Assembly (NCBI GenBank): GCA_964456445.1
Contig: CAYWBI010000004.1
Location: forward strand, 4,110-68,109
DNA from: an uncultured Calditrichaceae bacterium
GTDB taxonomy: Bacteria; Calditrichota; Calditrichia; Calditrichales; J004
Direction of reading: 5' to 3'
DNA length: 64,000 nt
Shown here: positions 33,903 to 64,000 of the stretch, one piece after another
Numbering within the stretch: the stretch's first letter is position 1
How the letters are laid out: the number at the start of each line of letters is the position of its first letter
The notes under the pieces: generated by a model
Told to the model about the DNA's origin: nothing
The model's input: the letters and a program-made list of their open reading frames with translations, nothing else
Database searches by the model: none
Translations under genes and position numbers: made by a program

Positions 33903-33966
33903 ATAAATACAAATGACCGTCTGAAGGCAGTTCTTTTAAAGGGTAAAATTTTTATTGTCCCTTTCA

Positions 33967-48453: not shown

Positions 48454-48736
48454 CGCCCTGTTCCCTGTTTATTGCCTCTTTTAAGGCGCGTGCCGATATG
48501 AAATATCCCACTATTTTCCGTGGAATGAGTATCATGGCTTTTAAACGTGGATTATACCCCTTGCGATGGTTATGCTCCCGGACGCCAAAAGTGCCTAAGC
48601 CGGGAACGGAAAAACGATGATGGTCGCTCAGTTCTTTGCGAAAGCCGGAAATAACATGATTATACATGACTTTAACATTTTTTTGAGAACGTCCATTGCG
48701 TTCAGAAAGGATTTTTATGAGTTCCCGGGTATTCAT
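48446..48736 (-). CDS. HU/IHF-family DNA-binding protein (96 aa)
   Basis: MNTRELIKILSE...VPGLGTFGVREHNHRKGYNPRLK...ARALKEAIN fits the HU fold. It overlaps the downstream HU-LysM gene by 8 nt. Confidence 0.8.
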   Translation of the reverse strand: MNTRELIKILSERNGRSQKNVKVMYNHVISGFRKELSDHHRFSVPGLGTFGVREHNHRKGYNPRLKAMILIPRKIVGYFISARALKEAINREQGDE

Positions 48737-49214
48737 ATAACTACCTGTCTTTATAAAATGATTGTTGAATACCGTGTGGTAAAGAAAATTTACAATGAAA
48801 AATTATAAGCTAATTTTTACATCTTGTCAAATATATCATCGGCGGATGAAAGATAGGCAATAGTTTGAAATAAAAAAATTGTCCATGCGTTTTTTCCCTT
48901 GGGCAATATCTATGGGACTTTAATACTATCCCGGCTTGATAAAAACGGTACAGGGAGTGGGAGGGCAACACGAAAAAAACAGCCATAATTACGGATAAAT
49001 ACAATGTACAATTTGGCGCTACTGGCTTTTGTGTGGAAATAGAACAGGCCTATTAAGAAACCTGAATGCTCCTGAATTAAAAATGAATGAAAACCATTGG
49101 ATTTTGATTTCGTTTTAATAAGCAAATGGTACGGACAAGTCAATCACTTGACTTTCAATCAAATTGTTTTTCTTCTTTGAATAGCCCGGGGACGAACGAT
49201 CCGGTTGACTCATC

Positions 49215-49254
49215 GGGGCTTTAGCCCCTGAAGTTGTCGGGCTAAAGCCCCCAT
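49215..49254. repeat. Copy of a 39-nt double-hairpin unit also present at 2173-2211
   Basis: 49216-49254 (gggctttagcccctgaagttgtcgggctaaagcccccat) matches 2173-2211 (gggctttagcccctgtagttgttgcgctaaaaccccaat) at 34/39 identities without gaps, counted by hand. Confidence 0.7.
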
Positions 49255-49286
49255 CTGATACATGCAGGAAGGCAAACAAAACAAAG

Positions 49287-50636
49287 CTACAACAGTTGCG
49301 CGGCCTTGTTTTCTTCACCTGTTTTAACATAAAGCCCGGCCAGGCGTCTGCTGACCTGGGAATTTTCCGGTGCCTGAATATGCAACGCTTCGTAAATATT
49401 GATTGCCCGGTCCAGTTTTCCTGTTTTTATATATAGGATGCCCAGCAGATCCAATACATCCAAACGGCTGGGTGCCTGTTGAAAAGCATTGGTCAGCAAG
49501 CTTTCTGCCCGGATAAATTTGCCGCGTTGTAAAAAAGCCTTGCCCGCTTGCACCTTTAAAGCAATATCGTCCGGCCGATCGGCGATCAAGCCGGCATAAA
49601 GCGCTTCCGCCCTGGGGAAATTTCCATTCATCAGTTCCAGTTCTGCCTGGGCATAATCCAGTTTTTCTTTTCCAAGTAAAACATCCGTGCCTATTTGCCA
49701 GCCATGTATTTGGATGTATGATTCGCTTGTACGAATGGACTCGAGCGCCTTTAGCGCTTTGGAAAATTTATTGCTGTTTTTATATATTTTGTAGAGCAAA
49801 TAATAACCGCCCACCTGCTTCTCTTCCAGGGTTACGGATTTTTCTGCCAGGTCCAGGGCCGTTTCGTTTTGATTCAGATTGAGACAGCTCTCTGCCCAAA
49901 CGTTGAGCAATGTCGCTGTAAGTTCTTTATTAAGCTGACGTAAGGCATAAGCTTTTTCAAAATGAGGCAGTGCGAGCCGCGGTTGATCCATCAGATTATA
50001 TTGTTGGGCCAGGGTGAAGTGGGCATAAGCACTGTTTGGATTTTCACGTACCATCCGTTCCAATAGACGGCCATTCCGCTTGTGTTTCTCTTTGGTAATA
50101 TCCTCTTCCAGCGCATAACCAAGATGGTCAATATGTATCGGCATCCTGCGGCTTTCCACTTTTCCCGGCTGACGGGACATTAACTGCTCATGTATGATCC
50201 CCTTAAAAGATATCCCTTTATGATTTGTAAACAATCGATAGGCGGTACTGATGTGGACGGCAGCATCATCATTCGATGCATTATTGATCTGAACCTGGCC
50301 AATAACCGGACGTTTTTCATGGGGATTTAATTTCTTTAGAAAACCGCACGCATCCGGCGATAATCTTTCATCCGCATCCAGCCATAAAATCCAATCACCA
50401 GTGGCAGGTTTAATAGACGCATTCCGCGCGGCAGAAAAATCATCGCACCAATCAAAACTGTGAACATTGGCACCATATTTTTTAGCAATGGCAACCGTAC
50501 GGTCTGTCGAACCTGTATCAACAACGATCAATTGGCTGGCAACATTTTTAACACTGCGCAGGCAATCTTCCAAAAATCGTTCTTCATTTTTAGTAATCAG
50601 GCAAACGCTTAATGATGCCTCTGACACATTTTTCAT
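49287..50636 (-). CDS. GT2 glycosyltransferase fused to C-terminal TPR repeats
   Basis: LSVCLITKNEERFLEDCL...LIVVDTGSTDRT...FDWCDDFSAARN...LWLDADERL, then about 250 aa of TPR. Confidence 0.8.
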   Translation of the reverse strand: MKNVSEASLSVCLITKNEERFLEDCLRSVKNVASQLIVVDTGSTDRTVAIAKKYGANVHSFDWCDDFSAARNASIKPATGDWILWLDADERLSPDACGFLKKLNPHEKRPVIGQVQINNASNDDAAVHISTAYRLFTNHKGISFKGIIHEQLMSRQPGKVESRRMPIHIDHLGYALEEDITKEKHKRNGRLLERMVRENPNSAYAHFTLAQQYNLMDQPRLALPHFEKAYALRQLNKELTATLLNVWAESCLNLNQNETALDLAEKSVTLEEKQVGGYYLLYKIYKNSNKFSKALKALESIRTSESYIQIHGWQIGTDVLLGKEKLDYAQAELELMNGNFPRAEALYAGLIADRPDDIALKVQAGKAFLQRGKFIRAESLLTNAFQQAPSRLDVLDLLGILYIKTGKLDRAINIYEALHIQAPENSQVSRRLAGLYVKTGEENKAAQLL

Positions 50637-50646
50637 TTACTTCTTC

Positions 50647-52839
50647 CTAATTCATCAAAGGCGTATTGGGTTGCAGGGCATCGATCAGGCGTTCCATATC
50701 GCTCAGGTCCAGGCTATGTTTTGCCGATGAGGCTTTTACCTGGTTGAAGCATTCCAACGCCTTATCGGTATTGCCCATGTACATATCCACAATTCCACGG
50801 ATATACAGGGCGATATAGCTTTGACTGTTGAACCGCAGACAACCATCGGCATATTGCCCGGCTTCGTTGTAGTTATTGCGGGCCAGCTCAATTTGTGCCA
50901 GACGCAGGTATATAATTTCACGTATTTCGTTTGTCAAATTTCCGGTAGGGTTGCGGATCGCGCGTGCCAAAAAAGCGCCGGCCTTATCGAGGTCATTTTC
51001 CGCCTTATAGGCCTCACCAAGCTTAAACAGGGTATAACTATCCATTGGATGTTCAGCCAGTTGTTCGTTAAGCAAACGAAGGTTCCTTTCATTTCTTTGG
51101 GCATTTTTATGCATATAACCAAAATGATCGATGCGCAGGGCGCTATCGCCTAACGAGCCACCAATCCGCTTTATGGAAGGCACAATTTGTTCGTGGATAC
51201 GGTTTTCATAGCATACTTTCTTTTTATTTTGAAACAGCCGAACTTGAAATTCATCCAGATATTTTACCATGTCCTGATCCGGTTGGTAATTTCTTACAAT
51301 TATATTGACGCCCTGATGGCTGCAATCCTGTATAAATGCCCGTACTGTCTTTGCCGAAACAGGTTCCAGGGCTTCATCGGCGTCAAGATGCAGTATCCAG
51401 CGGCCGGTTGCTTTTTCAAGGGCCGCATTACGCGCGGCGGAAAAATCTCCATTCCAGTCATGGCGATAAATTTTATCGGTGTATGCCTGCGCTATTTCAA
51501 TAGTGCGGTCATTTGACCCCGTATCGACAACAATGATTTCTTCACAAACACCGGAAACACTTTGCAGACAGCGTTTAATGTTCGATTGTTCATTTTTAAC
51601 GATCAGACACAAAGTTAACAGTGGCCGTTTAGCCTGTGCTTTTTTACTTTTAGGTTGTAAAATACCCAACGTCTCCCACAAGTCGCCATCGATTTCCCGA
51701 AGATATCGGTCAAAACTATCCGGATCGATATTGGCCTTTTCCATGTAAACATCCAGCTTTTTCATATCCTTCATAAAAGTATTTACATCCGAGTGAGTAT
51801 TATGCAAACGCAACAGTTGATAAAGTGCATCAAACCGGTCATACTCTGTTATGGCCACATGCCGGGGTGCAATGCCCCGCAATAAACAGTGACGTATTAA
51901 ATCCAGACTATATTCATATTCCCCTTTTTTTTCGAGAATACGGATAACCGGTTTCACCAATCGATAATCTGACCAATCGATTCTTTCACCAATCTGTTGG
52001 GCGCCGGAAAGGAACACCCTCTGGCTGTCCTGCACGTTATAGTGATACACCCAGTCACCAAACATTCCCCAGATACCGATAACCGATGCACGTAAGGGCG
52101 GGTTTTCATGCAAAATAAGCGCCGAGGCTTTTTTTAATTCTTTCTCAAAGGAAGTGTTTTTTAAACTTTTAAGGGTCAAAAGGTATTTATATAAATAATG
52201 ATAATCATCTGGCGTTTTCTTTAATGCGTCACGTAAAATAGGGAGGTTACGGTTCAGCTTTTTTAAAGGGTCGTCATAGCCATGATGAAGTAACGTCACA
52301 CCGCTTAACCGGCCCAGCGGATCTGTTATTTGGTGTGCATCGGCATAACTGCTAACAGCATTACCGGGATGCTCATGTATAATCCCCTCATAATAAAATC
52401 CACGGAAATTCCGAAAGAGCAACAGTCGCTCCAGGCCATGGGCTTTCCCCGTCTCATCGACACTCTGCTCCTCTATAAAAAAGGCCAGTTTTCCGGTATT
52501 TTTTAGGATGTCCATCAAGTTTACTGTCTGGTTAACTTTGATTATATGGTCGGCATCTAAGTTAAGCACCCAATTTTTTGTTGCATATTGCAGGGCAAAA
52601 TTTCGGGCAGCGGAGAAGTCATTGCCCCATTCAAAGTAATAAACCCGGGCGCCGAAACTTTTGGCAATTTCAACGCTATCGTCAGTCGAACCCGTATCCA
52701 CAATGATTATCTCATCCACATATTCACGGGCCGCCTGCAGGGATTTCGGTAGATTCTCCTGCTCATTCTTAACGATCATACATAGCGATATCCCGTTTGA
52801 AACTGTATTCATTGGCACATCCTTATATAACTTCCACAC
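50647..52839 (-). CDS. Double GT2 glycosyltransferase with C-terminal TPR repeats
   Basis: Two modules of the same subtype. The first is ISLCMIVKNEQENL...IIVDTGSTDDS...FEWGNDFSAARN...LNLDADH. The second is LTLCLIVKNEQSNI...IVVDTGSNDRT...HDWNGDFSAARN...LHLDADEAL. A TPR tail follows. Confidence 0.8.
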   Translation of the reverse strand: MWKLYKDVPMNTVSNGISLCMIVKNEQENLPKSLQAAREYVDEIIIVDTGSTDDSVEIAKSFGARVYYFEWGNDFSAARNFALQYATKNWVLNLDADHIIKVNQTVNLMDILKNTGKLAFFIEEQSVDETGKAHGLERLLLFRNFRGFYYEGIIHEHPGNAVSSYADAHQITDPLGRLSGVTLLHHGYDDPLKKLNRNLPILRDALKKTPDDYHYLYKYLLTLKSLKNTSFEKELKKASALILHENPPLRASVIGIWGMFGDWVYHYNVQDSQRVFLSGAQQIGERIDWSDYRLVKPVIRILEKKGEYEYSLDLIRHCLLRGIAPRHVAITEYDRFDALYQLLRLHNTHSDVNTFMKDMKKLDVYMEKANIDPDSFDRYLREIDGDLWETLGILQPKSKKAQAKRPLLTLCLIVKNEQSNIKRCLQSVSGVCEEIIVVDTGSNDRTIEIAQAYTDKIYRHDWNGDFSAARNAALEKATGRWILHLDADEALEPVSAKTVRAFIQDCSHQGVNIIVRNYQPDQDMVKYLDEFQVRLFQNKKKVCYENRIHEQIVPSIKRIGGSLGDSALRIDHFGYMHKNAQRNERNLRLLNEQLAEHPMDSYTLFKLGEAYKAENDLDKAGAFLARAIRNPTGNLTNEIREIIYLRLAQIELARNNYNEAGQYADGCLRFNSQSYIALYIRGIVDMYMGNTDKALECFNQVKASSAKHSLDLSDMERLIDALQPNTPLMN

Positions 52840-55800
52840 CGGAATAATTTTTAAAACGTTCCTGTAATTGCAGGGCGTCGGAATTTACCGGATCAAGGGA
52901 TAACACCTTATCTGCAAATTTCCCCGCTTCAGCCCATCTTTCTATTTCGGAATAAAAGTTCGCCATAATTAATAATGTTTCAATATCGTCCGGATGTTTA
53001 CCGAGGATATGATCAAATGTCTCGATTCCGTTTTTATAATCTCCTGATTCAACCAATGAAAGCCCATAATTACGCTGTGCTTCCAGATAACCTGGATTTA
53101 AGCCAATGGCCTTTGCAAAACTGCCAAGGGCGTTCTTCAGCTCTCCATTTTGAAAGTAAATAATACCCAGCTGGTTGTAAGCCACTTCAAAATCCGGCCA
53201 TTTTTCAATCAATTTGTTCAGGGTGGTGATGGCCCTAATTTGTTGTTCTTTGCGCACAGCGCACAGGGCCTGGCCCATCAGCGCCTCGGGCGTTTCCTGC
53301 AGGTTAAGGCTTTCCTTAAAACAGATTTCCGCCGCTTCTTCCTTAAAGGCGTTGAGCAATTCGTAACCTTCATCGCTTTTTTGCTGCCAGGAGGAACGGT
53401 CTGTGCCGTTTTCCGTGCCCCTACACAGCTCCAGCATTTCGTTTACTTCGGGGTTTTCCGGATCGATGCTTCGGGCTTTTTCCAGATAAAGCGCCGCTTC
53501 TTCGTTCCGGCCGGCTTCAAGGTTAAAACGGGCCATCATGACCAGGGCAACCAAATCATTCTCATTGGTGGAAAGACAAGCCACAAAAACCTTGACGCCT
53601 TCTTCATACCGCCCGGTTTCTACCAACACCTGACCCAGGTTATGATGGGCATCCAGAAAAGATCCGTCCAGCTTAACGGTGTGTTCAAAATATTTCAGCG
53701 CAGTTTCAGGATCGCCCTGCTGCGCCTTGACCACACCAAGCTGGTTCAATACCATTGGATTATCCGGAAAATGCAGGTGCGCCTTTTGCAGGTATAGTTC
53801 GGCATTTTCCAAATCGCCCTGGGCCTGGCAACTAAAAGCCATGCCCACCAGCGCCTCTCCGGACAGCGGGTTTTCGTTCCAGACTTGTTTGTACAGTTCC
53901 ATTGCCCCCGCGGCCTCACCTTGTTCCAGCATACGGGAAGCCTGTTCAATCAAAGCCGGGTGAACTTTATGCAACGGATTCTTTATTTCCAACAGTTCGT
54001 CATAATCCACTTCCGGCCATTTTTTACGGAAGATTTTCTCATTGGCCTTCAGCGATTCCAGCAAGTCGATCTTGTTGGCTTTAAAGGAGCTATGACCATA
54101 ATGGTGAATATAGGTGCCGTCATGCACCATCAGCGCATAACCGGCGGCACGGATTTTAAGACTGATATCATCGTCTTCAAAATTGCCCAGGCCATAGCCT
54201 TCGTCAAAACCCTGCACCTGCTCATAAACAGTCCTGCCGGTCAACATGACAAAACCGGCCAACCTACGGCGCGGGGTAACTTCGCCCTGGTGTTGGGCGC
54301 GCCAGTTATCGGCAAAGGGATAAAAGCCCGCATCATCGGTGTAGGGTATGTTTTTCAGTATTTGCATGCCGCTGGCTTTGTTGGTAACCGCGCCGACCAT
54401 ACCGATGCGCTCATCCCGGTCAAAGGCGTCGATCAAATCCTCCAGCCAGCCATCGGCCACCAGGACATCATTGTTCAACAGACAGATATAGTCGCCACCG
54501 GCCTTAGCCACACCTTGATTGTTCCCGGCGGAGAAGCCGCGATTTTCACTGTTGTAGATAGCACGCACCCCATCATTTTGAGCGCTAAAAGTTTTTAGCC
54601 AATCGACCGTGCCGTCGGTTGAGCCGTTGTCCACAAAGATCAGTTCAAATGGATAGGCCGTGTGGGCCAGAACGGAAGCCACGCATTTACGGGTCATTTC
54701 CAACGCATTGCAGGTAAGCATGATAATGGAAGCCAGTGGGCGCCCGTCTTCTTCCGTCCGTGTGTCCCCACTATTGGGTTCGTACAACTTAATGGGCGTA
54801 CCGTTCAATTGTGTAGCGCTGCCATCGGTCTCTATACGAAAATCCAGCGGCACCTTGCCCAGCCATTTTTCATGCAGGCGATTGATATTTTCCGCTACTT
54901 TTTTAAAGCGTTCCACCCCGCTCTTTGATTCATGATGGATCACCTCGCTGTGCGGCTGGTAAACCACATCGTACCCGGCCTTCCGCAGACGGAAACAAAG
55001 ATCCACGTCTTCGTAACCGTTCCAAAAGCCTTCGTCAAATCCGCCCACCTGTTCAAAGGCCGTGCGGGGCGCAAGCAAACAGGCGGCGGTAACGGCCTGA
55101 AGCGAGATGATCAAATTGGTTTGCGGGTGGTCATGAGGCTGCCCGACCAGGATATTTTGGGCCAAAAGCGGATCGCCGTTCTTCAGGTCTTCCACAATGG
55201 CCACCCCGGCATGTTGAATGGTCATATCCGGATAGAGTAATTTACTGCCCACCGCGCCCACACCGTCATCGCTGCGCACAATGGCCAACATGGCGTCTAA
55301 CCAGTGAGCGCGGGGCTCGGTATCGTTGTTCAAAAACAGCACATACGGCGCCTGCGTGGTTTTTACAGCCTGATTGTTGGCAACGGCAAAACCGGAATTT
55401 TGCCTGTTGGAGATTACCTTTATGCGTTTATCCTTGCTGGCCTGTTCCTTCAGCCAGGTAGCCGTACCGTCGGTGGAGCCGTTGTCCACCACGATCACTT
55501 CATAATCGATGCCCGTGCTTTGCTCATTTACAGCTTTCAGACATTTTTGGGTATATTCCAGTTTATTGAAGACCGGAATAATAAGGGCCACTTCCGGAGC
55601 TGCCTGGGCTGCGATCACCGGCTCCCGTGGCGCTTCACGATCAAGCAGCGAAAAATAGGCGTCCCGCCATTGATGCAAGTTTTTACTTAACGTGTATTTT
55701 TCCGCCACTTCCTTCTGGGCGTTTTCAGCTATCTGAATGCGCTTTTGCGGATTATCGATCATCCATTTTATCGCACGGAACCAAGCTTTGTTGGTATTTT

Positions 55801-58800
55801 CCACCAATAATCCGGTTTTTTTATCCTGTACGAATTTGGGATAGGCGGCCAGTTTGGAAAAAACCGCCGGGATACCGCAAGCTGCATATTCCAGCCATTT
55901 GATATGGGACTTGGCCTTGTTAAAAGGCGTGTCGTCCAGTGGCACCAGGGCCAGATCGATATCCATGCCCTGCAGTTGCCGGGCATATTCAGGATAAACC
56001 GGTGTAAATTGCGGTCCGCGTACAACATTCGGCAGCTCCATCAGTTCGGGGATTTCATTGCCCCACAGCACCAGTTCCACCTTGTCTTTGTAAGCATTAA
56101 GAATTTTTATCAGCGGTTTGGCGATGGTCCGCAGATCGAGCTGATGGGTCATGGTCCCGGCAAAGAGTAGGCGTACCTTTTCACCACTTTGCACAGGTGC
56201 CTTAAAAGGCCACAGTTGTTCATCGATCACATTATGCAAAACACGCACATTATCGTTTTTGTCCCGGCAGTAGCGGGCCATATAATCGGTGGAGACGGTC
56301 ACCAGATCGGCATTTTGAATATACGCGTCCAGTTGCGGACGCATTTGGTTATAAAAATTATAGGCAAGATGTGTTTCCGGCAGCGTCCAAAAGGCGTCGT
56401 CAAATTCATAGACCAGCTTAACGCCAAAGGCATCGAGATACTTTTTAAGTCCCTCATATTTGTAGAACCCCGGCATATTGCGTTGCAGGATCAGGATATC
56501 CAGGTTTTCTAAATTGACGGTATAACCATTTTCATCTTTGGCGCTTAACTGCTGATAATCAATCCATCCGGCGTCATGCAAACGACGCAACGGTGCATCG
56601 AGGCGTATCAGAGGACAGGCACGATCAACAGGATCGGCCGAGAGAAATCCAATTCGCGGTTTATCCGATTGCTTGTCTTTATGTTTGAGCGGGGCTGCTG
56701 TTGGACCTTCACAAAAGAAATCATACCAGTACGCCGCATCTTCAGCAATGGTTAAAATCTCGGGTATCCGGGCGGCGCGCGCGGCAATGTCCTGCGGATG
56801 TTTTACGATTTTCTGCATGATTTTTAACAGCGCCCCACCATCTGTTGGCGGAAACAACCAACCGTTTTCCCCATCGGTCACCACATCCAGAATGCCCCCT
56901 ACCGCACCTGCAATGACAGGTGTTTTAAGCATAAAAGATTCCCTTACCACCATGGAATAGGTTTCGGTCAGCGAGGGTACAACCAGCACGTCAATCCGGC
57001 TGAGTATTTGCGGCAGGTCTGCCGGCTGATAAACACCCATGGTGCGTAAGCGGGGATCATCTTTACAGAATTCATGTAATTCATTTTCAGTCTGTGGCAT
57101 ATCCTTGCCCCAGATTTCCAGTTCGGCATCCATATCAGAGCCTTTAAAGGCAACGAGCAGGGTGGCCAGGTTTTTCAATTTGCCAAAGGTACCCAAAAAC
57201 CCAAAGACCGTTTTTTTATGTGGCCCGGAATTGCTAATGGGCGTTAGAGCCGGCAGGCCAAGCGGATGTACTTCTACCCTGTCGGCGGAGATGTAGCCGT
57301 TTTCCACAAAACTGTTTTTCACAAAGGTTGATGGTGCCGTTATCTTTTCTGCCGCTTTTAACAATTCCCGTGCGCTTTGTGCACGCATGCCCATTTGTTC
57401 TGTAACCATTTGCAGTTGGTTGCCCTGCGGCGCCTGCTTGTATAAATCAAAAAAACAAGAAGCGCATTTATCCTTTCCCGGACCGGAACAAAGAGTGCTT
57501 TTTTCGTCGATGTAAAAATGGTTACGAAAACACATCAGGGTAAAATCATGCAGCGTCACCGCATAGGGGATATTGTGTTTGGCCGCAATTTGCCCCACAT
57601 CAAAAGGGATATTCTTGATATGCTGAAAGTGGATATAACTGAAATCATTATGCGTCAACAATTCATCAAACATCTGTGTGAGGATTTCCCCACCCGCGCC
57701 CAGAAAATCATTGTATAAATTGAGGTCATACCACAGTTGCAGGGTGGTAATCCCCTTGTACACGCGCAGACGCAGCTCCGGCGTGGCCTGGTCTTCATCC
57801 AAATGCGGAAATAATACATGGACGGTCAGGCCTTTTTGTTGCAACGCTTTTACATAGTTGAAAACATAATTTTCCGTGCCGCCAAACCAGTATGGTGGAA
57901 AATTATGGACCACGACCAGGATGTTTTTTTTACCTGCTTCGGTGATGGTCATTTTTGGGGGCAGGATCATTTCACCCGGGAGCTCTTTATAAGCCGCTTT
58001 ATACTTTTGCCGCACCTGTTTGGCTTCGATCAACGGCGCGTTGCCACGGCGGGAAACGGTTTCATCGCTCAGATAATAGAGACCGATAAATTCCTTAAGA
58101 TGGATAAAGTCATGCTTTAATGCCACGCGCAACCAAAATTCCCAGTCGGCAGCGGATTTCAGCGAGGTATCGAAATAACCCAACTCTTCATGCAGGCTTT
58201 TGCGCCATACGGGATGCGGCCCGATGTAACACCAGGAATGCATCGTCCGCCGGTCAAAATCGGGCCAAACCAAATCCTGGCTGCCGTCGGAGCTGTTATC
58301 TTCAAAGGTTTCATTGGGCACGGTGGTAACCAGAGAATCACCATAGGCCAGGGCCTTATCCGGGTGGGCGTCAAGCAAACCGGCCAGTTTTTCGAGGGCG
58401 TCGGCACGCAGCCGGTCGTCCGTATTGGCGTTGGTCACATAGGGCGCCCGGGCCATTTTGATACCCCGGTTCCAGGATTCGTACACTGTTTCCCGTTGAT
58501 CGGTGCGCACATAGCGGATATGATCCTGTTTTTTCTGAAACTCTTCTACAATTGCTTTTTCATTTTGCGGGCTATGGGCGTCTATGACGATGATTTCCAG
58601 TTGGCCTTTTGTATAAAGGCTTTGATTTACCAGTCCCTCAAGACATCCGCGGATAAATTTTTCCGAATTATAGGTGGAAACAACCGCCGACACCCGATAA
58701 CTGTTAGCGGCCGGTTTTTCCGAAGACACGGAAAACGCAGGCGTTTTTGACCGGTAACTTTCCACCAGCGCGGGGAGGGCTTTCAGTTGATTTGGCGGCA

Positions 58801-60679
58801 ATTTCAGCGCCTGCATCATTTGATCCACTTCCGCGTCCGTAGCGGTTAAAGGCTCCGTCGAAATTGTCTTCAAATCGCCCAGAAGATCGTTGTACTCATA
58901 ACCTAAGGCGGCAAGAATTCCGGGCCCGAGCGTGTTTAGGTACACCTCCGCCAGGAGTTTGTATTGCGGATCGGCAAAGGTCTTTTTCCATTTTTCCAGA
59001 CTGTCTGCCGAAGGCCGATCGTGCCGTTCAACACCAAGCGGATCGCCCATACTGCCCTTAGGCGCGGGACGCCCGCCATAATTCAACATCCCGTCCCGAT
59101 AATCGATGCCCAGTTCCATACAAAGTTTCGATACGGCTTTTTCCGGTGTTTCTATCAGCTCTTCATAACGCACTACCGAAACGGCTCCGGGATTTTTACG
59201 CATAAAATCAGCCAAAAGCACCGGCGCCAGCAGAAGATCGTTTCGGTGCAGTCCCAGACGGTTCCAGTCCCGCCCGATCCAGGTGGTTAAAATAGAAGCA
59301 AGTACGGCCAGCGGATTGCGCAGCAATAGCACCCTTCCGGCCTGAGGCAAGAGTTCCATCAGTTCGGGCAGGATATGATAATAGCGCGGGGTTTTATCCA
59401 GGAAAAGCTCCCGGCCGCTGTTCTGCAGGGCGCGCCCGTACCAGGTGTGGGCCATGGCGCGTAAACCATCGAGATAGTCTTCCCGCCCGTTGGGCATGTT
59501 GTCCATAAAATCCTTTAAACCGATTTGGGCGTCCACCGCACTGTATTCACTTTGCAGCCCCTGCTCTTTTAGGGCATAGAGCGGATGGAGCATGATCCAG
59601 GGTTCGGCCACGGTGTGCACTTTTGGATTTCCGGCCAGGATACGTTGAAGCAAGGTGGAACCGGCCCGCGGCTGAGAGATGAGAAAAATCAGGTTTTCAC
59701 CGAGGTACTTTTCAACACTGTTGTTTTGCGCTTTCAGTGCAGGGTTTATTTTTTGCCGGTCTTGTTTTTCCATGGGTACATCCTTTTGGACGGGTGCATT
59801 GATATCATTGAGGTTTAGTTGTTCGGGATTTATTTTACCAAGTGCGCCAAGATGCACGAGTAAGGAATTTAACTCAGAAAGGACATATTTCTGCTCGCCG
59901 ATGCTGCGCTCTTGTAACAGGTGCAGGTTTTTCCGCATGACCATGAGAGCGGAAGCATAGAGATTGTCATTCTGTTTGTGATGGATACCTTCGCGATGAT
60001 CGCGGTAAAAAACCGTTTTGGCGCCGGAATAAACCACGGGATATTTAGATGCCATATTTATTTTAAGGTCCCAATCCACATGTACACTTATGGATGGATC
60101 GCCATAGCCAACCTTGCGCATAGCGGCCGTATCCATCAATTGGTTACGAAAAAGACTCCGGCGTCCTTTAAAAAAGTGCTTGGCGAAAGCCGCCACAAAA
60201 ACTTCGCCGGAAGGCGGATCAGGATCGCCTTTTTTATGCCAAACATCTTTTATGTCCCCATTTGCATCAACTATGGTCACATTGGAATAGGCTACTTTGG
60301 CACGAGTGTTTTTTTGCAAAACCTTCCATTCCATCTCCAGTTTTTCTGGATGCCAATAATCATCACCATCGATAACCGTAGTCCAATCACATGTTACCTG
60401 ATCCTTACCAAATTTGCCATTAGCGATATGCCCGATATTATTCTCATGACGGAAAACACGAAACAATTTAGGATACCGTTTTTTATATTTGGTTATGATT
60501 TCCCAGGATTTGTCACTCGAGCAATCATCACATACTATAATCTCAGATGGTTTTAGTGTTTGTTTGATGATGCTTACCAGGCATTGATCAATATATTTCT
60601 CAAAATTGTAAGAAAATACGACAACACTGATAAGTGGTTTTTGATTGCTTACTTTTTTTGGGAAGGCTTTCTTTCGCAT
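52823..60679 (-). CDS. 2,618-aa multidomain glycan-modifying enzyme: GT2 - sulfotransferase - GT2 - GT-B - GT-B - GT2 - GT2 - TPR
   Basis: Uninterrupted ORF. GT2 signatures: ISVVVFSYN/DDCSSD/DGDDYW; VSAVVSTYN/IDAHSP/NTDD; VALIIPVFN/VDNGSTDGT/LNNDT; ASIIMLTCN/VDNGSTDGT/LNNDV. Sulfotransferase-like motifs are SQPRAGSTLL and LLLRNPLAVLAS. GT4-like motifs are ILVVVHNFPPYWFGGTENY ... SLTETYSMVVRESFMLKTPVIA. The C-terminal ~380 aa are TPR. Approximate nt boundaries are given in the findings. Confidence 0.85.
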   Translation of the reverse strand: MRKKAFPKKVSNQKPLISVVVFSYNFEKYIDQCLVSIIKQTLKPSEIIVCDDCSSDKSWEIITKYKKRYPKLFRVFRHENNIGHIANGKFGKDQVTCDWTTVIDGDDYWHPEKLEMEWKVLQKNTRAKVAYSNVTIVDANGDIKDVWHKKGDPDPPSGEVFVAAFAKHFFKGRRSLFRNQLMDTAAMRKVGYGDPSISVHVDWDLKINMASKYPVVYSGAKTVFYRDHREGIHHKQNDNLYASALMVMRKNLHLLQERSIGEQKYVLSELNSLLVHLGALGKINPEQLNLNDINAPVQKDVPMEKQDRQKINPALKAQNNSVEKYLGENLIFLISQPRAGSTLLQRILAGNPKVHTVAEPWIMLHPLYALKEQGLQSEYSAVDAQIGLKDFMDNMPNGREDYLDGLRAMAHTWYGRALQNSGRELFLDKTPRYYHILPELMELLPQAGRVLLLRNPLAVLASILTTWIGRDWNRLGLHRNDLLLAPVLLADFMRKNPGAVSVVRYEELIETPEKAVSKLCMELGIDYRDGMLNYGGRPAPKGSMGDPLGVERHDRPSADSLEKWKKTFADPQYKLLAEVYLNTLGPGILAALGYEYNDLLGDLKTISTEPLTATDAEVDQMMQALKLPPNQLKALPALVESYRSKTPAFSVSSEKPAANSYRVSAVVSTYNSEKFIRGCLEGLVNQSLYTKGQLEIIVIDAHSPQNEKAIVEEFQKKQDHIRYVRTDQRETVYESWNRGIKMARAPYVTNANTDDRLRADALEKLAGLLDAHPDKALAYGDSLVTTVPNETFEDNSSDGSQDLVWPDFDRRTMHSWCYIGPHPVWRKSLHEELGYFDTSLKSAADWEFWLRVALKHDFIHLKEFIGLYYLSDETVSRRGNAPLIEAKQVRQKYKAAYKELPGEMILPPKMTITEAGKKNILVVVHNFPPYWFGGTENYVFNYVKALQQKGLTVHVLFPHLDEDQATPELRLRVYKGITTLQLWYDLNLYNDFLGAGGEILTQMFDELLTHNDFSYIHFQHIKNIPFDVGQIAAKHNIPYAVTLHDFTLMCFRNHFYIDEKSTLCSGPGKDKCASCFFDLYKQAPQGNQLQMVTEQMGMRAQSARELLKAAEKITAPSTFVKNSFVENGYISADRVEVHPLGLPALTPISNSGPHKKTVFGFLGTFGKLKNLATLLVAFKGSDMDAELEIWGKDMPQTENELHEFCKDDPRLRTMGVYQPADLPQILSRIDVLVVPSLTETYSMVVRESFMLKTPVIAGAVGGILDVVTDGENGWLFPPTDGGALLKIMQKIVKHPQDIAARAARIPEILTIAEDAAYWYDFFCEGPTAAPLKHKDKQSDKPRIGFLSADPVDRACPLIRLDAPLRRLHDAGWIDYQQLSAKDENGYTVNLENLDILILQRNMPGFYKYEGLKKYLDAFGVKLVYEFDDAFWTLPETHLAYNFYNQMRPQLDAYIQNADLVTVSTDYMARYCRDKNDNVRVLHNVIDEQLWPFKAPVQSGEKVRLLFAGTMTHQLDLRTIAKPLIKILNAYKDKVELVLWGNEIPELMELPNVVRGPQFTPVYPEYARQLQGMDIDLALVPLDDTPFNKAKSHIKWLEYAACGIPAVFSKLAAYPKFVQDKKTGLLVENTNKAWFRAIKWMIDNPQKRIQIAENAQKEVAEKYTLSKNLHQWRDAYFSLLDREAPREPVIAAQAAPEVALIIPVFNKLEYTQKCLKAVNEQSTGIDYEVIVVDNGSTDGTATWLKEQASKDKRIKVISNRQNSGFAVANNQAVKTTQAPYVLFLNNDTEPRAHWLDAMLAIVRSDDGVGAVGSKLLYPDMTIQHAGVAIVEDLKNGDPLLAQNILVGQPHDHPQTNLIISLQAVTAACLLAPRTAFEQVGGFDEGFWNGYEDVDLCFRLRKAGYDVVYQPHSEVIHHESKSGVERFKKVAENINRLHEKWLGKVPLDFRIETDGSATQLNGTPIKLYEPNSGDTRTEEDGRPLASIIMLTCNALEMTRKCVASVLAHTAYPFELIFVDNGSTDGTVDWLKTFSAQNDGVRAIYNSENRGFSAGNNQGVAKAGGDYICLLNNDVLVADGWLEDLIDAFDRDERIGMVGAVTNKASGMQILKNIPYTDDAGFYPFADNWRAQHQGEVTPRRRLAGFVMLTGRTVYEQVQGFDEGYGLGNFEDDDISLKIRAAGYALMVHDGTYIHHYGHSSFKANKIDLLESLKANEKIFRKKWPEVDYDELLEIKNPLHKVHPALIEQASRMLEQGEAAGAMELYKQVWNENPLSGEALVGMAFSCQAQGDLENAELYLQKAHLHFPDNPMVLNQLGVVKAQQGDPETALKYFEHTVKLDGSFLDAHHNLGQVLVETGRYEEGVKVFVACLSTNENDLVALVMMARFNLEAGRNEEAALYLEKARSIDPENPEVNEMLELCRGTENGTDRSSWQQKSDEGYELLNAFKEEAAEICFKESLNLQETPEALMGQALCAVRKEQQIRAITTLNKLIEKWPDFEVAYNQLGIIYFQNGELKNALGSFAKAIGLNPGYLEAQRNYGLSLVESGDYKNGIETFDHILGKHPDDIETLLIMANFYSEIERWAEAGKFADKVLSLDPVNSDALQLQERFKNYSGVEVI

Positions 60680-60689
60680 ATCAATTTCC

Positions 60690-61583
60690 TTAATCTATAA
60701 ATGAAAAATCATATCCATAAGACTCATAAGCATTTTTCAGTTGATATTTTTCAAAAAAATATTTGAATACTTCTTTTTGCCATTCGTTAAAATGCTGATA
60801 TCGGGCAGATGCATCTGTTTTATTTTTATCGGATTTATGTTCATTGACCACACCGGTTCGAAATACCTTTCTTAAATATATCTCGTCAACGGAAAGACGC
60901 CCGTTCGTAAGTTTCGCTATAATCCCACTCAACACATCAGGATTGTTGGTCACCTCTTCCATTTTTATCGCGCCCAGATAATTATAAGCGTTTATGTTTT
61001 TTACGATATCATATGCATCAAGGTCTTTACGCAGGCTGCCTAACACAGCAGAAGCACCAATAAAGGCAAGGTTCTCAATATCTCCCGGAAAAAAATCATA
61101 CTTCAGCGCGAGCTTGTGTATAAATTCCCGGGCCTCATTTAACACTTTTCCCAGTGTCCAATGCAGCTCGTTCAAGTCATAGCGAAATAGTGATTTAAAT
61201 TGTCCATAACCGCTCCAAACCAGAGAAACCGGATGGCGCACAAGGTTCATGACTGTGTAATTTTTCTTATTTGGACCAAAACGTTCCCACAGATATGGGA
61301 GATCGCGCATTCTTAACACATGGACAGAACCATAAAACTTTCCATTTCCCATTTTTTCGATTTGTTCATACTTTGCATCCACGGTATCAATGCTCCGGGA
61401 TAGATAGCCTTTATGCAACGCTAATAAATTTGCGCGCAGACTCTCATCGCTATTCATCCCTCTTTCATTCGCGGGGATGTTCCGTGCGCTATGGCTGCAA
61501 ACAATCTCCGGATGGAGATTAAGCGCGTAGGCCAGCCAGTTACTTGCGCTCCAGCCATGCGAGGTTATGATAAAATGGTTCAT
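60690..61583 (-). CDS. Sulfotransferase-fold-like protein (tentative)
   Basis: N-terminal FIITSHGWSASNWL resembles a 5'-PSB loop. NLVRHPVSLVWS resembles the 3'-PB (RxP...S) motif. It is AT-rich, at about 23-33% GC in the two hand-counted lines (60721-60840). Confidence 0.4.
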   Translation of the reverse strand: MNHFIITSHGWSASNWLAYALNLHPEIVCSHSARNIPANERGMNSDESLRANLLALHKGYLSRSIDTVDAKYEQIEKMGNGKFYGSVHVLRMRDLPYLWERFGPNKKNYTVMNLVRHPVSLVWSGYGQFKSLFRYDLNELHWTLGKVLNEAREFIHKLALKYDFFPGDIENLAFIGASAVLGSLRKDLDAYDIVKNINAYNYLGAIKMEEVTNNPDVLSGIIAKLTNGRLSVDEIYLRKVFRTGVVNEHKSDKNKTDASARYQHFNEWQKEVFKYFFEKYQLKNAYESYGYDFSFID

Positions 61584-62509
61584 AAATATTTCTCCGCATA
61601 GCCAAATCCCGAAGCTCCGAAACCATTGCCATTATAAAACATGTATAGTTTATTGCCCATTTTATACACACTGGGATATGCGACCATCTCCGAATCCCAT
61701 CCGTGTTGAGACGGGACAAGGCCGGCCAGATGATCCATGCGCTTAAAGCGGATGCCATCCATGGATTCCGCGTATCCGATCCGGTAAGAAGATTTTTTTT
61801 GGGTACGATAATCCTTTCGTCCTCTAACCGAATACCACATTTTATACGTGCCGTTGTCCTTCAGCACAGTCGGGCAGGCAATACCCCCTTCCCCAGGTTC
61901 CAGACCAACGGAAGTGAGGCCTTCACGACGCCAGGATTTACCATCCGAGGATTCGGCATATTTTATTTCGTATGCCGGTTCCATAATTCCATCAATTTTA
62001 TCCCAGCCAAGATATGACATATACCAGGTACGCAAACGTTCGCCCTCGGTCATCAGGGCCTGGCACGAAACGGATACCGGGTCACAGCTGTTCCTGTCCA
62101 TGATTGGACCGGCAGACGCCTTTTTAAAGGTACGCCCATCCTCACTGATGGCCAGCCCCAAGGCGGTCCGATAACGAGCTGTGTTGCCCGTATTCCACCC
62201 CACATAGTAAAAATAGGTTCGGTCATGATAGCGGATAACTTCCGAAGGCATCACACCGGAATCATCAAAGGTACCGGCAGGGCCCAATTCTAAAATGGGC
62301 GTTGGATGCTCATATAATACCTTCGCCGGATTGCAGGCATCTACCTCAATAAACGATGTCCGTGTCCGGTTTTTGTCATCCCTCGTTCCATAATAAATAC
62401 GTAAAACATCTTCCCCGACCGGTTCCACAATTGGAACCTGGGCATGGGTCAATGTCCACGCATGATTACCATTGACACAAAAAATGCGGCCTTTTTTAAC
62501 CCAGCTCAT
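61580..62509 (-). CDS. Five-bladed beta-propeller glycosidase-fold protein (GH32/43/68/130-like superfamily), function unknown
   Basis: Repeated blade-like segments: W...H...P, RIYYGTRD, YFYYVGW, LGLAISEDG.TF, YAESSDGKSW, YAESMDGIRF, YMFYNGNGFG. This is typical of uncharacterised propeller proteins in glycan clusters. Confidence 0.5.
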   Translation of the reverse strand: MSWVKKGRIFCVNGNHAWTLTHAQVPIVEPVGEDVLRIYYGTRDDKNRTRTSFIEVDACNPAKVLYEHPTPILELGPAGTFDDSGVMPSEVIRYHDRTYFYYVGWNTGNTARYRTALGLAISEDGRTFKKASAGPIMDRNSCDPVSVSCQALMTEGERLRTWYMSYLGWDKIDGIMEPAYEIKYAESSDGKSWRREGLTSVGLEPGEGGIACPTVLKDNGTYKMWYSVRGRKDYRTQKKSSYRIGYAESMDGIRFKRMDHLAGLVPSQHGWDSEMVAYPSVYKMGNKLYMFYNGNGFGASGFGYAEKYL

Positions 62510-63492
62510 AGCAGTCCTTCCACACGTTCCAGGGTATTGCCGGTTGAAACCATCTTCCCGGAATATTCAACAGTCATTTCGGCCACAGCATATCCTATAT
62601 CAATGGCTGGCACCGTTTTCATTTTCCTTCTCCATCTCCCCGTATCAAGCACAAAGGAGTTTTCATTTTCACGTGGGGCCCGATGATAAATATTAATACC
62701 GCCGCCGAGACTTTCATTTATCATATTCGCAATTTCATCAAGCGAAGGACTGCTCCAGCCAACATTGAACACTTCAAACGGTAACAATCCTTTTGTATTA
62801 GTAAGCAATTCCATGACAACGGCAGCAATATCCTTAACATGGATTTGCGGACGACGCTGTGCACCGCCCCATACCGATATAGATTTTTTTTGTAGGCTAT
62901 CCAGGATAAAACGATTAACGATAAATTCTTTTTTCATACGAGGAGAATAACCGAATGCCATGGCCAGCCGTAATATCACGACCGAAACAAAACCGGATTT
63001 ATACGTATTCAAAATCTTTTCTGCCTGCCATTTGGATTGGGAATAAAGCTCAGCGGGATTTGGCGACAATTGTTCGCTTAATCGATGTCTATAATCATTG
63101 CCATAAACACCAAAGGTTGAAGCAAATATGATTTTTTTACAAGTACCTTCTGCACTGAGGCGGACAAATTCCCGGAACCCTTCAACATTCACATCATAAG
63201 TATGCTGCGGCGCCATTCTCCCCGCACGGCCATCGGACACGCCGGCAAGGTAAATGACGGTTTCCACATCCCTGAGACTTTTATGGACTATCTCCGTATC
63301 GCGGATGTCGCCGCTGAGGAACGTAAAATTATTTGTATTGTTATTTAAGCTTACAGGCAAATATGCCGGCGGCCTCTGGTCAAGAATGGTTATTTTGTAT
63401 CCCCTTTGATAAAGGGAATCTGCAAGGATGCTTCCGATATATCCGGCGCCGCCCGTGATCAGGATACGATCGCCGCTATTCATTCTCATCAT
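62506..63492 (-). CDS. NAD-dependent epimerase/dehydratase (extended SDR)
   Basis: Rossmann motif ILITGGAGYIGS. The catalytic YSQSK gives Y-x-x-x-K. It shares a 4-nt overlap with the downstream gene. Confidence 0.85.
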   Translation of the reverse strand: MMRMNSGDRILITGGAGYIGSILADSLYQRGYKITILDQRPPAYLPVSLNNNTNNFTFLSGDIRDTEIVHKSLRDVETVIYLAGVSDGRAGRMAPQHTYDVNVEGFREFVRLSAEGTCKKIIFASTFGVYGNDYRHRLSEQLSPNPAELYSQSKWQAEKILNTYKSGFVSVVILRLAMAFGYSPRMKKEFIVNRFILDSLQKKSISVWGGAQRRPQIHVKDIAAVVMELLTNTKGLLPFEVFNVGWSSPSLDEIANMINESLGGGINIYHRAPRENENSFVLDTGRWRRKMKTVPAIDIGYAVAEMTVEYSGKMVSTGNTLERVEGLL

Positions 63493-64000
63493 CCCAGTAG
63501 CCGTTTTTTGAAATTAATCCATAATAATCGTTTCGGGTGACGCCTACCACAATTTTATCCCAAAAGCGATTTTTTCGGAAATAATAGTTACGTTGTCTGC
63601 CCTCTTCCACCCAGCCACATTTCTTAAGATAAACTGCAAGAGAAATTTTATTATACTCGATCATGGAACCATCAAGCCGTTCCAATCCAAGTTCATCAAA
63701 CGCATAGCGCATAACAGCCATTATTGTATCTGTCCCATAGCCCTTGCCGCGTATATCTTTATCACCAAGCATCATACCATGAAAGGCATTCCGGTCTTTC
63801 CAATTGATATTTACAAGATTTGCGGTACCAATGATGCCCATGTCCGGGGTTTCTATGGCAAATCGTTGATCCGCAGAGGCAGGCGATAAATTTTCAAACC
63901 ATTTTTTTTGATCGCTAATAGATATCGGGAAGTGCCAGGAGGCTAATAGCGGCCAGATTTTCGGATCATTTGCCCATTGATGCAGTATTTCCAAATCGCT
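63476..64000 (-). CDS. GNAT-family N-acetyltransferase (RimJ/RimL-like), 5' end probably outside window
   Basis: ...ILHQWANDPKIW...FAIE...IGTANLVNINWKDRNAFHGMMLGDKDIRGKGYGTD... The track 'M' at 63994 is a TTG, and the frame stays open to base 64000. Confidence 0.75.
   Translation of the reverse strand, partial: SDLEILHQWANDPKIWPLLASWHFPISISDQKKWFENLSPASADQRFAIETPDMGIIGTANLVNINWKDRNAFHGMMLGDKDIRGKGYGTDTIMAVMRYAFDELGLERLDGSMIEYNKISLAVYLKKCGWVEEGRQRNYYFRKNRFWDKIVVGVTRNDYYGLISKNGYWDDENE

Follow-up and report, generated by a model that had tools for sequence, protein, structure and literature searches.

A putative flagellin glycosylation island with a giant glycosyltransferase–sulfotransferase protein in an uncultured Calditrichaceae bacterium

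Results

A packed gene cluster at the end of the window

We analyzed a 64,000-nt stretch of DNA from an uncultured Calditrichaceae bacterium (the window), which ends in seven closely packed minus-strand genes for glycosyltransferases (GTs), sulfotransferase-type proteins, and sugar-tailoring enzymes. On the minus strand they run from g7, which encodes a GNAT protein and is cut by the window end, to g1, and the fifth in this order, g3, encodes a giant of 2618 aa (Table 1). All seven open reading frames (ORFs) that an initial annotation of the same DNA had reported were recovered at its coordinates, and its 17-nt and 4-nt overlaps, 10-nt gaps, and 550-nt spacer were correct. The 17-nt overlap at 52823–52839 requires the longest g2 ORF, which starts with GTG; the public gene call starts nine codons later at an ATG (721 aa) and turns this junction into a further 10-nt gap. 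Likewise, the public call for g6 is 325 aa, and its longest ORF (starting MMRMNS) is 328 aa. The genes of the cluster are real, because each has a strong family match or hundreds of homologues.

The initial annotation had counted ten GT modules and two sulfotransferase-type modules. Pfam gives nine Leloir GT modules, of which the giant has six, g2 two, and g1 one; ten is reached only by including the GH130-like propeller of g5. The two sulfotransferase-type modules stood, that of g4 at the fold level only. Pfam agrees that g1, g2, and the giant, that is, all three GT proteins, end in TPR arrays. The identities proposed for g7 (GNAT) and g6 (epimerase) were borne out by Pfam, and that of g5 (beta-propeller) by a weak GH130 match and an AlphaFold model. 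The operon end at 49287 was confirmed as well: the 550-nt spacer that follows it contains a terminator-like hairpin and, farther on, a perfect (12/12) sigma70 consensus promoter (TTGACA-17-TATAAT) that serves the next gene, HU. We regard this spacer as the end of the island because the downstream neighbors differ in every relative.

The cluster extends upstream to flgL

Exact-sequence look-up of g5 led to a 45-kb Joint Genome Institute metagenome contig (L001), which is 100% identical to the window over 12,421 shared nt and places window base 64000 at L001 5720. The complete g7 gene (189 aa, L001 5675–6244) starts 45 nt past the window end. Upstream of it lie a 496-nt non-coding gap (L001 5179–5674), five more island genes, and then the flagellar gene flgL. 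The order going upstream past the gap includes genes for an FkbM methyltransferase, a DegT aminotransferase, a FemAB-like Acetyltransf_6 protein, and a 360-aa Sulfotransfer_3 protein (E=1.6e-9). On the same strand, 63 nt separate the first island gene from the 3' end of flgL upstream of it (TIGR02550, E=7.7e-16, with the last 108 profile positions aligned), and L001 ends inside flgL. The gap upstream of g7 also holds a hairpin at L001 5431–5452. The initial annotation had supposed that the 5' end of the operon, past base 64000, could hold the functions it missed; the DNA found there has sugar-tailoring genes, a third sulfotransferase, and flgL instead. The seven genes are most likely the distal part of a ~20-kb, 12-gene island that adjoins the flgK-flgL end of a flagellar cluster and shares its strand.

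In the four relatives' loci that we examined (L003, L004, L006, and L009), the island directly follows flgN-flgK-flgL every time, and the downstream neighbors are all different. In L003 (57% identity) and L004 (47%), the run flgF/G-flgA-flgH-flgI-flgJ-flgN-flgK-flgL leads into the island on the same strand, and the far side is occupied by S9 peptidase/FeoAB or Ser/Thr kinase/ROK genes, with HU at this place in the window. A more distant relative adjoins flaF-flbT-flagellin (L007), and another, in a Thiogranum metagenome-assembled genome (L008), is inserted between flgK-flgL and fliC-flaG-fliD-fliS-fliT-fleQ. The order is flgG...flgL-island-fliC-fliC-fliD in the Marinimicrobia loci L052 and L070, and the gammaproteobacterial L066 is also located between flgL and fliC.

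Co-occurrence of the cluster with flagellar genes across genomes had been suggested as a check. A profile of the giant, run against a single genome from each species, gave 79 loci, and we called flagellar genes in their 10-kb flanks with hidden Markov models seeded from L003–L008. Flagellar genes were found beside 43 of these 79 related loci, from at least eight phyla, where many of the negative loci are contigs of 3–10 kb and the loci share ancestry and are thus phylogenetically non-independent. Because flagellar genes fill only ~1–2% of a genome, this is a very large enrichment. By group, flagellar genes were present at 9/13 loci of Calditrichota, 7/11 of Marinimicrobia/Fidelibacterota, 12/16 of the Desulfobacterota type, 4/8 of Verrucomicrobiota, 3/9 of Planctomycetota, 2/3 of Gammaproteobacteria, 2/2 of Atribacterota, and 0/4 of Cyanobacteria. 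A complete flagellar gene set has been reported for Caldithrix abyssi (PMC5317091).

Two proteobacterial loci, L007 (7203–8459) and L072 (~9001–9028), carry a full sigma28-type promoter, TAAAGATAGC...GCCGATAA, upstream of the giant on the opposite strand. The one in L007 precedes small TPR-only genes, which might encode separate flagellin-docking subunits.

g1 and g2 resemble the flagellin glycosyltransferase GmaR

Listeria GmaR transfers N-acetylglucosamine (GlcNAc) to flagellin and consists of a GT2 domain followed by TPRs (PMC9638930). Among all PDB sequences, the best match of the g1 GT2 domain is the GmaR GT domain (E=1.8e-30, 33% identity), followed by SunS (E=3e-20), and the motifs KNE, VDTGSTD, DFSAARN, DADE, IHE, and HxGY are retained. 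The second GT2 module of g2 (g2b) likewise matches GmaR best, and the peptide S-glycosyltransferases SunS and ThuS come after GmaR for g1 and g2b. In pairwise comparison, g1, g2b, and the first GT2 module of g2 (g2a) form one subfamily apart from the GT2 modules of the giant; the three have 33–38% identity to the GmaR GT domain and share KNE, VDTGSxD, DFSAARN, DAD[E/H], IHE, and HxGY. As in GmaR, the TPRs come directly after the GT domain, starting at aa ~203 in g1 and ~575 in g2. PDB searches with g1 and g2 gave no match to the linker and the anti-repressor (MogR-binding) domains of GmaR, and a 503-aa chain annotated as 'Glycosyl transferase family 2' (7x9r), which is probably GmaR141-637 (PMC9638930), matches g1 only at 145–244. 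Judged from these alignments, g1 and g2 are homologues of the GmaR catalytic domain and not GmaR orthologues. The homology, together with the GT2-then-TPR order, points to a protein acceptor. In the Caulobacter flagellin transferase FlmG, the TPR domain is necessary and sufficient to bind flagellins (PMC7591256).

Domain order in the giant: GT modules, a sulfotransferase, and a TPR array

We scanned the giant with Pfam both as a whole protein and in seven segments, and aligned its family (alignment A3). The order of domains is GT2, Sulfotransfer_3, GT2, GT4-type GT-B, second GT-B, GT2, GT2, and TPR. The first GT2 module matches chondroitin synthase (2z86, E=9e-19) and heparosan synthase (8vh7, E=5e-10) in the PDB, and its DDxSxD and GDD motifs are near-invariant in A3. 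In module 3, D700, N752, D754, and D755 are invariant, as are VDNxSxDG and NNDV in module 7; modules 6 and 7 are 30% identical to each other. The sequence of module 4 contains the E-x7-E motif (TETYSMVVRE). The C-terminal TPR array matches the TPR domain of human O-GlcNAc transferase (OGT; 7ntf, E=1.4e-24). Full-length relatives of the giant have 39–59% identity, and several are binned as Caldithrix or Calditrichota.

In A3, no stretch of the giant family is better conserved than the sulfotransferase (ST) domain. It matches the ST domains of CurM (4gbm, E=1e-9) and of an olefin synthase (4gox, E=3e-11), and both SQPRxGST (335–342) and R454-x7-S462 are invariant. With its fold domain, 5'-phosphosulfate loop, and 3'-phosphate R...S motif, it has the predicted makeup of a sulfotransferase dependent on 3'-phosphoadenosine 5'-phosphosulfate (PAPS). 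Relatives of 2880–2900 aa (P0003, P0004, and P0006–P0008 in A3) have an insert of ~290 aa between the first GT2 module and the ST domain. This insert, which is absent from the giant of the window, has a canonical LPKAGTN sulfotransferase loop and matches Pfam Sulfotransfer_1. The conservation of the ST domain and the second ST-like insert of these relatives argue that sulfation is central rather than vestigial.

Table 1. Coordinates of the island genes, their modules, and other features of the window.
Feature	Position in window	Strand	Description
g7 ORF	63476–63994+ (window 63476–64000)	minus	cut by window end
g6 ORF	62506–63492	minus	328 aa
g5 ORF	61580–62509	minus	309 aa
g4 ORF	60690–61583	minus	297 aa
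g3 (giant) ORF	52823–60679	minus	2618 aa
Giant module 1, GT2, aa 18–290	59810–60628	minus	Glycos_transf_2 E=4e-28
Giant module 2, Sulfotransfer_3, aa 331–529	59093–59689	minus	Pfam E=3.8e-25
Giant module 3, GT2, aa 664–880	58040–58690	minus	Glycos_transf_2 E=1.6e-24
Giant module 4, GT-B fold, GT4 type, aa 932–1295	56795–57886	minus	Glyco_transf_4 E=1.8e-11, Glycos_transf_1 E=3.8e-21
Giant module 5, second GT-B, aa ~1340–1672	55664–56662	minus	Glyco_trans_1_4 E=1.3e-10, Glyco_trans_1_2 E=1.5e-10
Giant module 6, GT2, aa 1695–1926	54902–55597	minus	Glycos_transf_2 E=2.6e-29, Glyco_tranf_2_3 E=5e-17
Giant module 7, GT2, aa 1984–2200	54080–54730	minus	Glycos_transf_2 E=2.8e-32
Giant C-terminal TPR array, aa ~2250–2600	52880–53932	minus	TPR_19 E=2e-29, TPR_2 E=1e-25
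g2 ORF	50647–52839	minus	730 aa from GTG; 721 aa from ATG at 52812
g2 architecture	50647–52839	minus	GT2, helical linker, GT2, TPR; two Glycos_transf_2 stretches E=4.8e-44 and TPR families
g2 first GT2 (g2a), aa ~18–215	52195–52788	minus	E=4.6e-28 vs g1; 38% identity to GmaR
g2 second GT2 (g2b), aa 403–594	51058–51633	minus	best PDB match GmaR 22ao E=3.4e-33
g1 ORF	49287–50636	minus	449 aa
g1 GT2, aa 8–198	50043–50615	minus	Glycos_transf_2 E=7.6e-23
g1 TPR array, aa ~203–445	49302–50030	minus	TPR_19 E=2.3e-18
Spacer after island	48737–49286	minus	550 nt, up to the HU gene at 48736
Terminator-like hairpin in spacer	49064–49045		
Sigma70 promoter in spacer	48830–48802	minus	12/12 consensus
HU gene	48446–48736		
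HU-LysM fusion gene	47251–48453		400 aa
PorU-like C25 peptidase	41263–45267		1334 aa, C-terminal FlgD_ig-type domain
Tyrosine recombinase gene	33967–34857		adjoins the Type ISP gene
Type ISP restriction/methylase gene	30601–33768	minus	1055 aa, low GC
tmRNA gene, then tRNA-Gly, tRNA-Cys, tRNA-Leu	13060–13955	minus	tag AENNYALAA
DUF5666 repeat protein (six-fold)	10768–12774		C-terminal FlgD_ig-type domain

g4 and g5 form a conserved gene pair

g4, which the initial annotation had called sulfotransferase-like, gave no match in Pfam, NCBIfam, or PDB sequence searches, and the name held at the level of the fold. The AlphaFold2 (AF2) model built from a 40-sequence alignment had a mean confidence (pLDDT) of 93.2, and in a Foldseek search of the PDB, sulfotransferases accounted for 28 of the top 29 matches, including the first 21, with TM-scores of only 0.31–0.47 and a best E-value of 5e-4. 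The matches include the CurM ST domain, tyrosylprotein sulfotransferase (TPST), SULTs, Teg12, and 3-OST. The strand1/helix1 loop holds H9-G10-x-S12-x-S14, which is invariant in the family, and R116 and S124 are spaced like the R-x7-S of the 3'-phosphate motif; both elements are positioned as expected but are non-canonical. We tentatively take g4, as modeled, to have a distant PAPS-sulfotransferase fold.

For g5, the AF2 model (pLDDT 94.9) is a five-bladed beta-propeller with TM-scores of 0.70–0.74 to GH137 and GH130 enzymes in Foldseek, GH137, GH43, GH32, and GH130 being equally close. The Pfam GH130 match is weak (E=2.4e-8), the PDB match to beta-1,2-mannobiose phosphorylase (7fip, E=5.9e-11) spans 56 residues, and the similarity to GH130 is limited to the ~60–85 C-terminal residues, with an NCBIfam score of 58.8 bits against a cut-off of 450. 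More than 6000 homologues exist, archaeal ones included. On the predicted structure, g5 is a propeller of the GH130/GH43/GH32 superfamily (DUF377-like), and it may be a phosphorylase-type or trimming enzyme.

g5 and g4 are a conserved adjacent gene pair (window 60690–62509, L088 650–2494, L089 6982–8903). L088 is a glycan/GT cluster of Flavobacteriaceae, and L089, from Alteromonas, is a flagellin glycosylation island that includes Maf and flagellin. In both loci, the pair is directly after a Hexapep acyltransferase gene, and in L089 a DegT aminotransferase gene adjoins.

Sugar-tailoring genes

g7 matches Pfam Acetyltransf_3 (E=3e-16) and NCBIfam PseH (E=3.6e-16), the latter with 59.6 bits against a cut-off of 93.1. 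g6 is an SDR-family NDP-sugar epimerase/dehydratase (Pfam Epimerase, E=5e-39; GDP_Man_Dehyd, E=5e-26), and its best NCBIfam matches, GalE and LegB, are every one below cut-off. The nearest families of the upstream DegT aminotransferase are DesI and PseC, also below their cut-offs. Together with the FemAB-like acyltransferase and the FkbM methyltransferase, the SDR, GNAT, and DegT proteins make up a set of tailoring genes such as flagellin glycosylation islands carry. A pseudaminic/legionaminic (nonulosonic) acid pathway, suggested by the matches to the early-step enzymes PseB, PseC, and PseH, was rejected, as all scores were far below the family cut-offs and there was no synthase, CMP-transferase, or Maf. 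In Pfam and NCBIfam searches, the island proteins have no Maf_flag10 or MptE-like domain and no NeuB-type synthase, and the island is not of the Maf type.

The island encodes soluble proteins and no export system

The products of the 12 island genes are soluble: none has a membrane-helix-like hydrophobic window of 19 residues, and windows above 1.6 occur only in a core strand of the ST domain. The initial annotation had seen no Wzx/Wzy/Wzz, no ABC or OPX exporter, and no initiating transferase, and it had favored direct glycosylation of a protein over capsule or O-antigen synthesis, provided that such genes did not lie immediately upstream. Pfam found none of them in 37 window ORFs, including all those of at least 150 aa, nor in the 5.7 kb upstream in L001, where the flagellar gene was found instead. 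Existing annotations of the 10-kb flanks of L003, L004, and L006 also list no export or initiating-transferase family. The marks of a Wzx/Wzy- or ABC-dependent locus (initiating transferase, flippase/polymerase or ABC exporter, and PCP/OPX) are therefore lacking from the window ORFs, L001, L003, L004, and L006.

As a positive control, we used the cyanobacterial locus L082 (1–29323), in which the homologous GT and ST modules are separate genes inside a Wzx/Wzy-type locus. The same tools found a Wzz/GNVR kinase, Poly_export, a Wzx-type flippase, Bac_transf, and a pyruvyl transferase around them, and the absence of export genes from the window is therefore meaningful. L082 is probably a sulfated exopolysaccharide cluster; this suggests that polysaccharide loci and flagellar islands have exchanged modules.

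Other features of the window

Downstream of the spacer, the HU gene is followed by an HU-LysM fusion gene, and both are behind the 12/12 sigma70 promoter. The Type ISP restriction/methylase gene lies in a low-GC stretch (0.36 versus ~0.45) and, with the adjoining tyrosine recombinase gene, may form an acquired defense island (30601–34857). A tmRNA gene is followed by genes for tRNA-Gly, tRNA-Cys, and tRNA-Leu (13060–13955). The PorU-like C25 peptidase and the DUF5666 repeat protein both end in FlgD_ig-type domains. These tails suggest type IX secretion system (T9SS)-style sorting in a flagellated genome and would fit an origin in the FCB group (Calditrichota-like). Glycosylation of T9SS cargo, which these proteins brought to mind, was rejected, as the island proteins are soluble and cytoplasmic and their conserved neighbor is flgL rather than T9SS genes.

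Discussion

The cluster is located beside flagellar genes and combines GmaR-type GTs and tailoring genes with a lack of carrier and export machinery, which is the composition of a flagellin glycosylation island. We consider it probable from the sequence that this island builds a large and probably sulfated sugar chain directly on flagellin in the cytoplasm. The placement after flgL, the GmaR homology, and the lack of an exporter upstream all support the direct protein glycosylation proposed in the initial annotation. Among the substrates it had listed, flagellin is favored by the flgL linkage and GmaR, and the gene context gives no support to pilin, S-layer protein, or T9SS cargo.

We propose the following pathway. 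g6, g7, and the DegT, FemAB-like, and FkbM proteins would supply one or more nucleotide sugars of an N-acylated, possibly methylated, amino-deoxyhexose. The GmaR-like GT2 modules of g1 and g2 would then place the first sugar on Ser/Thr residues of flagellin in the cytoplasm, where the TPR tails of both proteins may hold the unfolded or chaperoned substrate. For extension, the giant would dock by its OGT-like TPR array and carry out up to six further transfers with its four GT2 and two GT-B modules. Sulfate from PAPS would be added by the ST domain of the giant, by g4, and by the upstream 360-aa sulfotransferase, and g5 might either add a sugar from a sugar-1-phosphate or trim the glycan. The modified flagellin would finally leave through the flagellar type III apparatus, and no lipid carrier, flippase, or polysaccharide exporter would be required.

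Several observations weigh against this reading. No flagellar gene was found at 36 of the 79 loci, some of them from non-flagellate cyanobacteria, and the enzyme type is thus not exclusive to flagella. Neither the window nor L001 has a flagellin gene, and fliC is not within 10 kb in the Calditrichota relatives; we infer flagellin as the acceptor from the flgL linkage and the GmaR homology only. No sigma28 promoter could be demonstrated for the island: the 496-nt gap has an exact -10 octamer, GCCGATAA (L001 5275–5282), with a poor -35 element. In the related loci, GCCGATA[AT] turns up roughly every 17 kb on each strand, and the sigma28 motif TAAAG-N15-CCGATAA is clear upstream of fliC in nine of them. 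In PDB searches, the GT2 modules of the giant resemble enzymes that extend polysaccharides and glycans (chondroitin synthase, heparosan synthase, TagF, and GalT1) rather than any known protein glycosyltransferase. The TPR tails of g1, g2, and the giant share no similarity in BLASTP at E<=1e-3. As for sulfation, the fold match of g4 is weak, its 5'-phosphosulfate-binding (PSB)-like loop has no Lys at the usual position, and the window contains no PAPS-synthesis genes. Finally, the g5-g4 pair also occurs in the Flavobacteriaceae cluster L088, which has no flagellar link.

These points bear on three other explanations. The island could be a conventional surface polysaccharide locus (sulfated capsule, exopolysaccharide, or O-antigen) whose initiating transferase and exporter are encoded elsewhere and whose position next to flgL is incidental. 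The matches of the giant to chondroitin synthase, heparosan synthase, and TagF would fit this, as would the g5-g4 pair in a Flavobacteriaceae GT cluster and the distant cyanobacterial relatives within a complete Wzx/Wzy-type locus (Wzz kinase, OPX, Wzx, and Bac_transf), and multi-module GTs do occur in ABC-transporter-dependent O-antigen synthesis. However, not one of the 12 genes encodes a membrane protein, and no export or initiating gene appeared in the scanned ORFs, the upstream DNA, or the flanks of the three relatives. The same-strand placement after flgL is conserved while the other flank varies, the flagellar linkage recurs across phyla, three modules are GmaR homologues, and all three GT proteins have TPR tails of the protein-binding kind, so that we find a polysaccharide locus very unlikely. 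It is just as improbable, in our view, that the acceptor is another protein exported by the flagellar apparatus (FlgL, FlgK, the hook protein FlgE, or the cap protein FliD), in place of or besides flagellin, or a non-flagellar protein such as a pilin. The Calditrichota island does follow flgK-flgL rather than fliC, three GmaR-like initiating modules with three dissimilar TPR tails could mean several acceptors, and a TPR-bearing GT of Synechococcus modifies a pilin (PMC9306852). On the other side, islands of other phyla abut fliC, flaG, fliD, and fliS, or flaF-flbT-flagellin, no pilin or S-layer genes are nearby, and the characterized homologues and analogues GmaR, FlmG, FgtA, and VioT all act on flagellin (PMC9638930, PMC7591256, PMC11833859, PMC3927599).

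A less remote alternative, though still an unlikely one, concerns the sulfate: the sulfotransferase-type modules might sulfate Tyr, Ser, or Thr of the protein, act as inactive scaffolds, or use another donor, in which case the flagellin glycan would be of an ordinary kind, free of sulfate. The best fold matches of g4 include tyrosylprotein sulfotransferases, its loop is without the canonical PKxGTT lysine, PAPS-synthesis genes are not in the window, and a full-text search of a literature library turned up neither a sulfotransferase tied to flagellin glycosylation in bacteria nor a sulfate ester on a bacterial flagellin glycan. By contrast, the ST domain is conserved better than any other part of the giant family, and its invariant PSB-like loop and R-x7-S motif would argue for catalysis. 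This domain is fused between GT modules, relatives often have two of them, and the g4 family is also found in clusters of a purely glycan type.

The closest parallels are the flagellin islands of Pseudomonas, which we compared by their published descriptions. The a-type (orfA-orfN) and b-type (PA1088–PA1091/FgtA) islands of P. aeruginosa and the fgt1/fgt2 and vioA/B/M/T genes of P. syringae share with the present island a block for a 4-aminotransferase, an N-acyltransferase, and a methyltransferase, together with large soluble flagellin GTs of the GT2 type. The P. aeruginosa island reportedly lies between flgL and fliC, as do the Thiogranum and Marinimicrobia relatives. In Pseudomonas, VioT has 1173 aa, FgtA is a GT2 enzyme, and the islands, which are in or beside flagellar genes, lack both a lipid carrier and an exporter (PMC3927599, PMC11833859, PMC4875605). 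The tailoring enzymes of our island resemble the products of the viosamine genes vioA/B/M of P. syringae (PMC3927599). The differences are in scale and content. Surveyed islands of Enterobacteriaceae have one to three GTs in 2.4–23 kb, with methyl, formyl, acetyl, and lipoyl modifications (PMC4875605), whereas the present one has nine GT modules in three proteins, six of them fused with a sulfotransferase and a TPR array in one polypeptide. Its predicted three sulfotransferase-type modules and GH130-like propeller also set it apart from the Pseudomonas islands, and fliC is not adjacent in Calditrichota. As far as the sequence tells, the giant fused enzyme and the numbers of sulfotransferase-type and GT modules are its unusual features.

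GmaR of Listeria monocytogenes, a flagellin O-GlcNAc transferase and MogR anti-repressor, resembles g1 and g2 in its N-terminal GT2 domain of ~190 aa with TPRs directly after it, and its function is tied to flagella (PMC9638930). However, GmaR has 637 aa against the 449 aa of g1, works alone, and adds a single GlcNAc, whereas the island has three such modules and a putative elongation machine. FlmG of Caulobacter crescentus and eukaryotic OGT follow a similar modular logic: their TPR domain brings in the protein to be modified, and the GT fused to it adds the sugar within the cytoplasm (PMC7591256). In these proteins the TPR domain is N-terminal and the catalytic domain is of the GT-B type (GT41 in OGT), whereas here the TPRs are C-terminal and the adjacent modules are GT-A (GT2); moreover, FlmG transfers pseudaminic acid, and the island has no Pse synthase (PseG/I/F). 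Filament glycans that contain sulfur and are negatively charged are known from Clostridioides difficile, which has a type B sulfonated peptidylamido-glycan, and from haloarchaea, whose archaellins have sulfated N-glycans (PMC5207245, PMC2952790). Unlike a PAPS-derived sulfate ester, the sulfonate in C. difficile is on a taurine-like peptidyl moiety, and the archaeal glycans are N-linked and assembled on dolichol carriers. Wzx/Wzy- or ABC-dependent loci for sulfated exopolysaccharides, of which L082 is a probable example, share GT2 and GT4 modules with the giant and have sulfotransferases akin to its own. In L082, each module is a gene of its own, and a Wzz/GNVR kinase, Poly_export, Wzx, and Bac_transf flank the set, whereas the modules of the island are joined to TPR tails within a flagellar cluster and have no membrane partner.

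Known flagellin islands, described in a few pathogens, have one to three transferases and make short neutral or carboxylated glycans. Together with its relatives from at least eight phyla, most of them uncultured, the present locus suggests a far more elaborate version, in which up to nine transferase modules and three sulfotransferase-type modules would act without any membrane step and most of the chemistry is fused in one TPR-anchored enzyme of 2600–2900 aa. A bolder proposal, which we put forward tentatively and with some doubt, is that a long sulfate-esterified hetero-oligosaccharide may decorate flagellin in this lineage, as well as in many uncultured members of the Calditrichota, Marinimicrobia, Desulfobacterota, Verrucomicrobiota, and Atribacterota, and may be made in the cytoplasm by a single TPR-tethered 'assembly-line' polypeptide with six GTs and a sulfotransferase. 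The glycan might be glycosaminoglycan-like, because the GT2 modules of the giant resemble chondroitin and heparosan synthases. PAPS-dependent sulfation would then be without precedent for a bacterial flagellar glycan, and the giant would represent a new class of modular megaenzyme that glycosylates proteins. If so, sulfate esters would join the known chemistry of bacterial flagella, with a bearing on filament charge, on recognition by phages and predators, and on life in saline or hot habitats. For glycoengineering, the giant would be of interest as a natural modular scaffold with which defined sulfated oligosaccharides could be assembled on a protein inside the cell. The ST-fold family of g4 and the DUF377/GH130-like family of g5, which are widespread and travel as a pair, would also gain a functional context.

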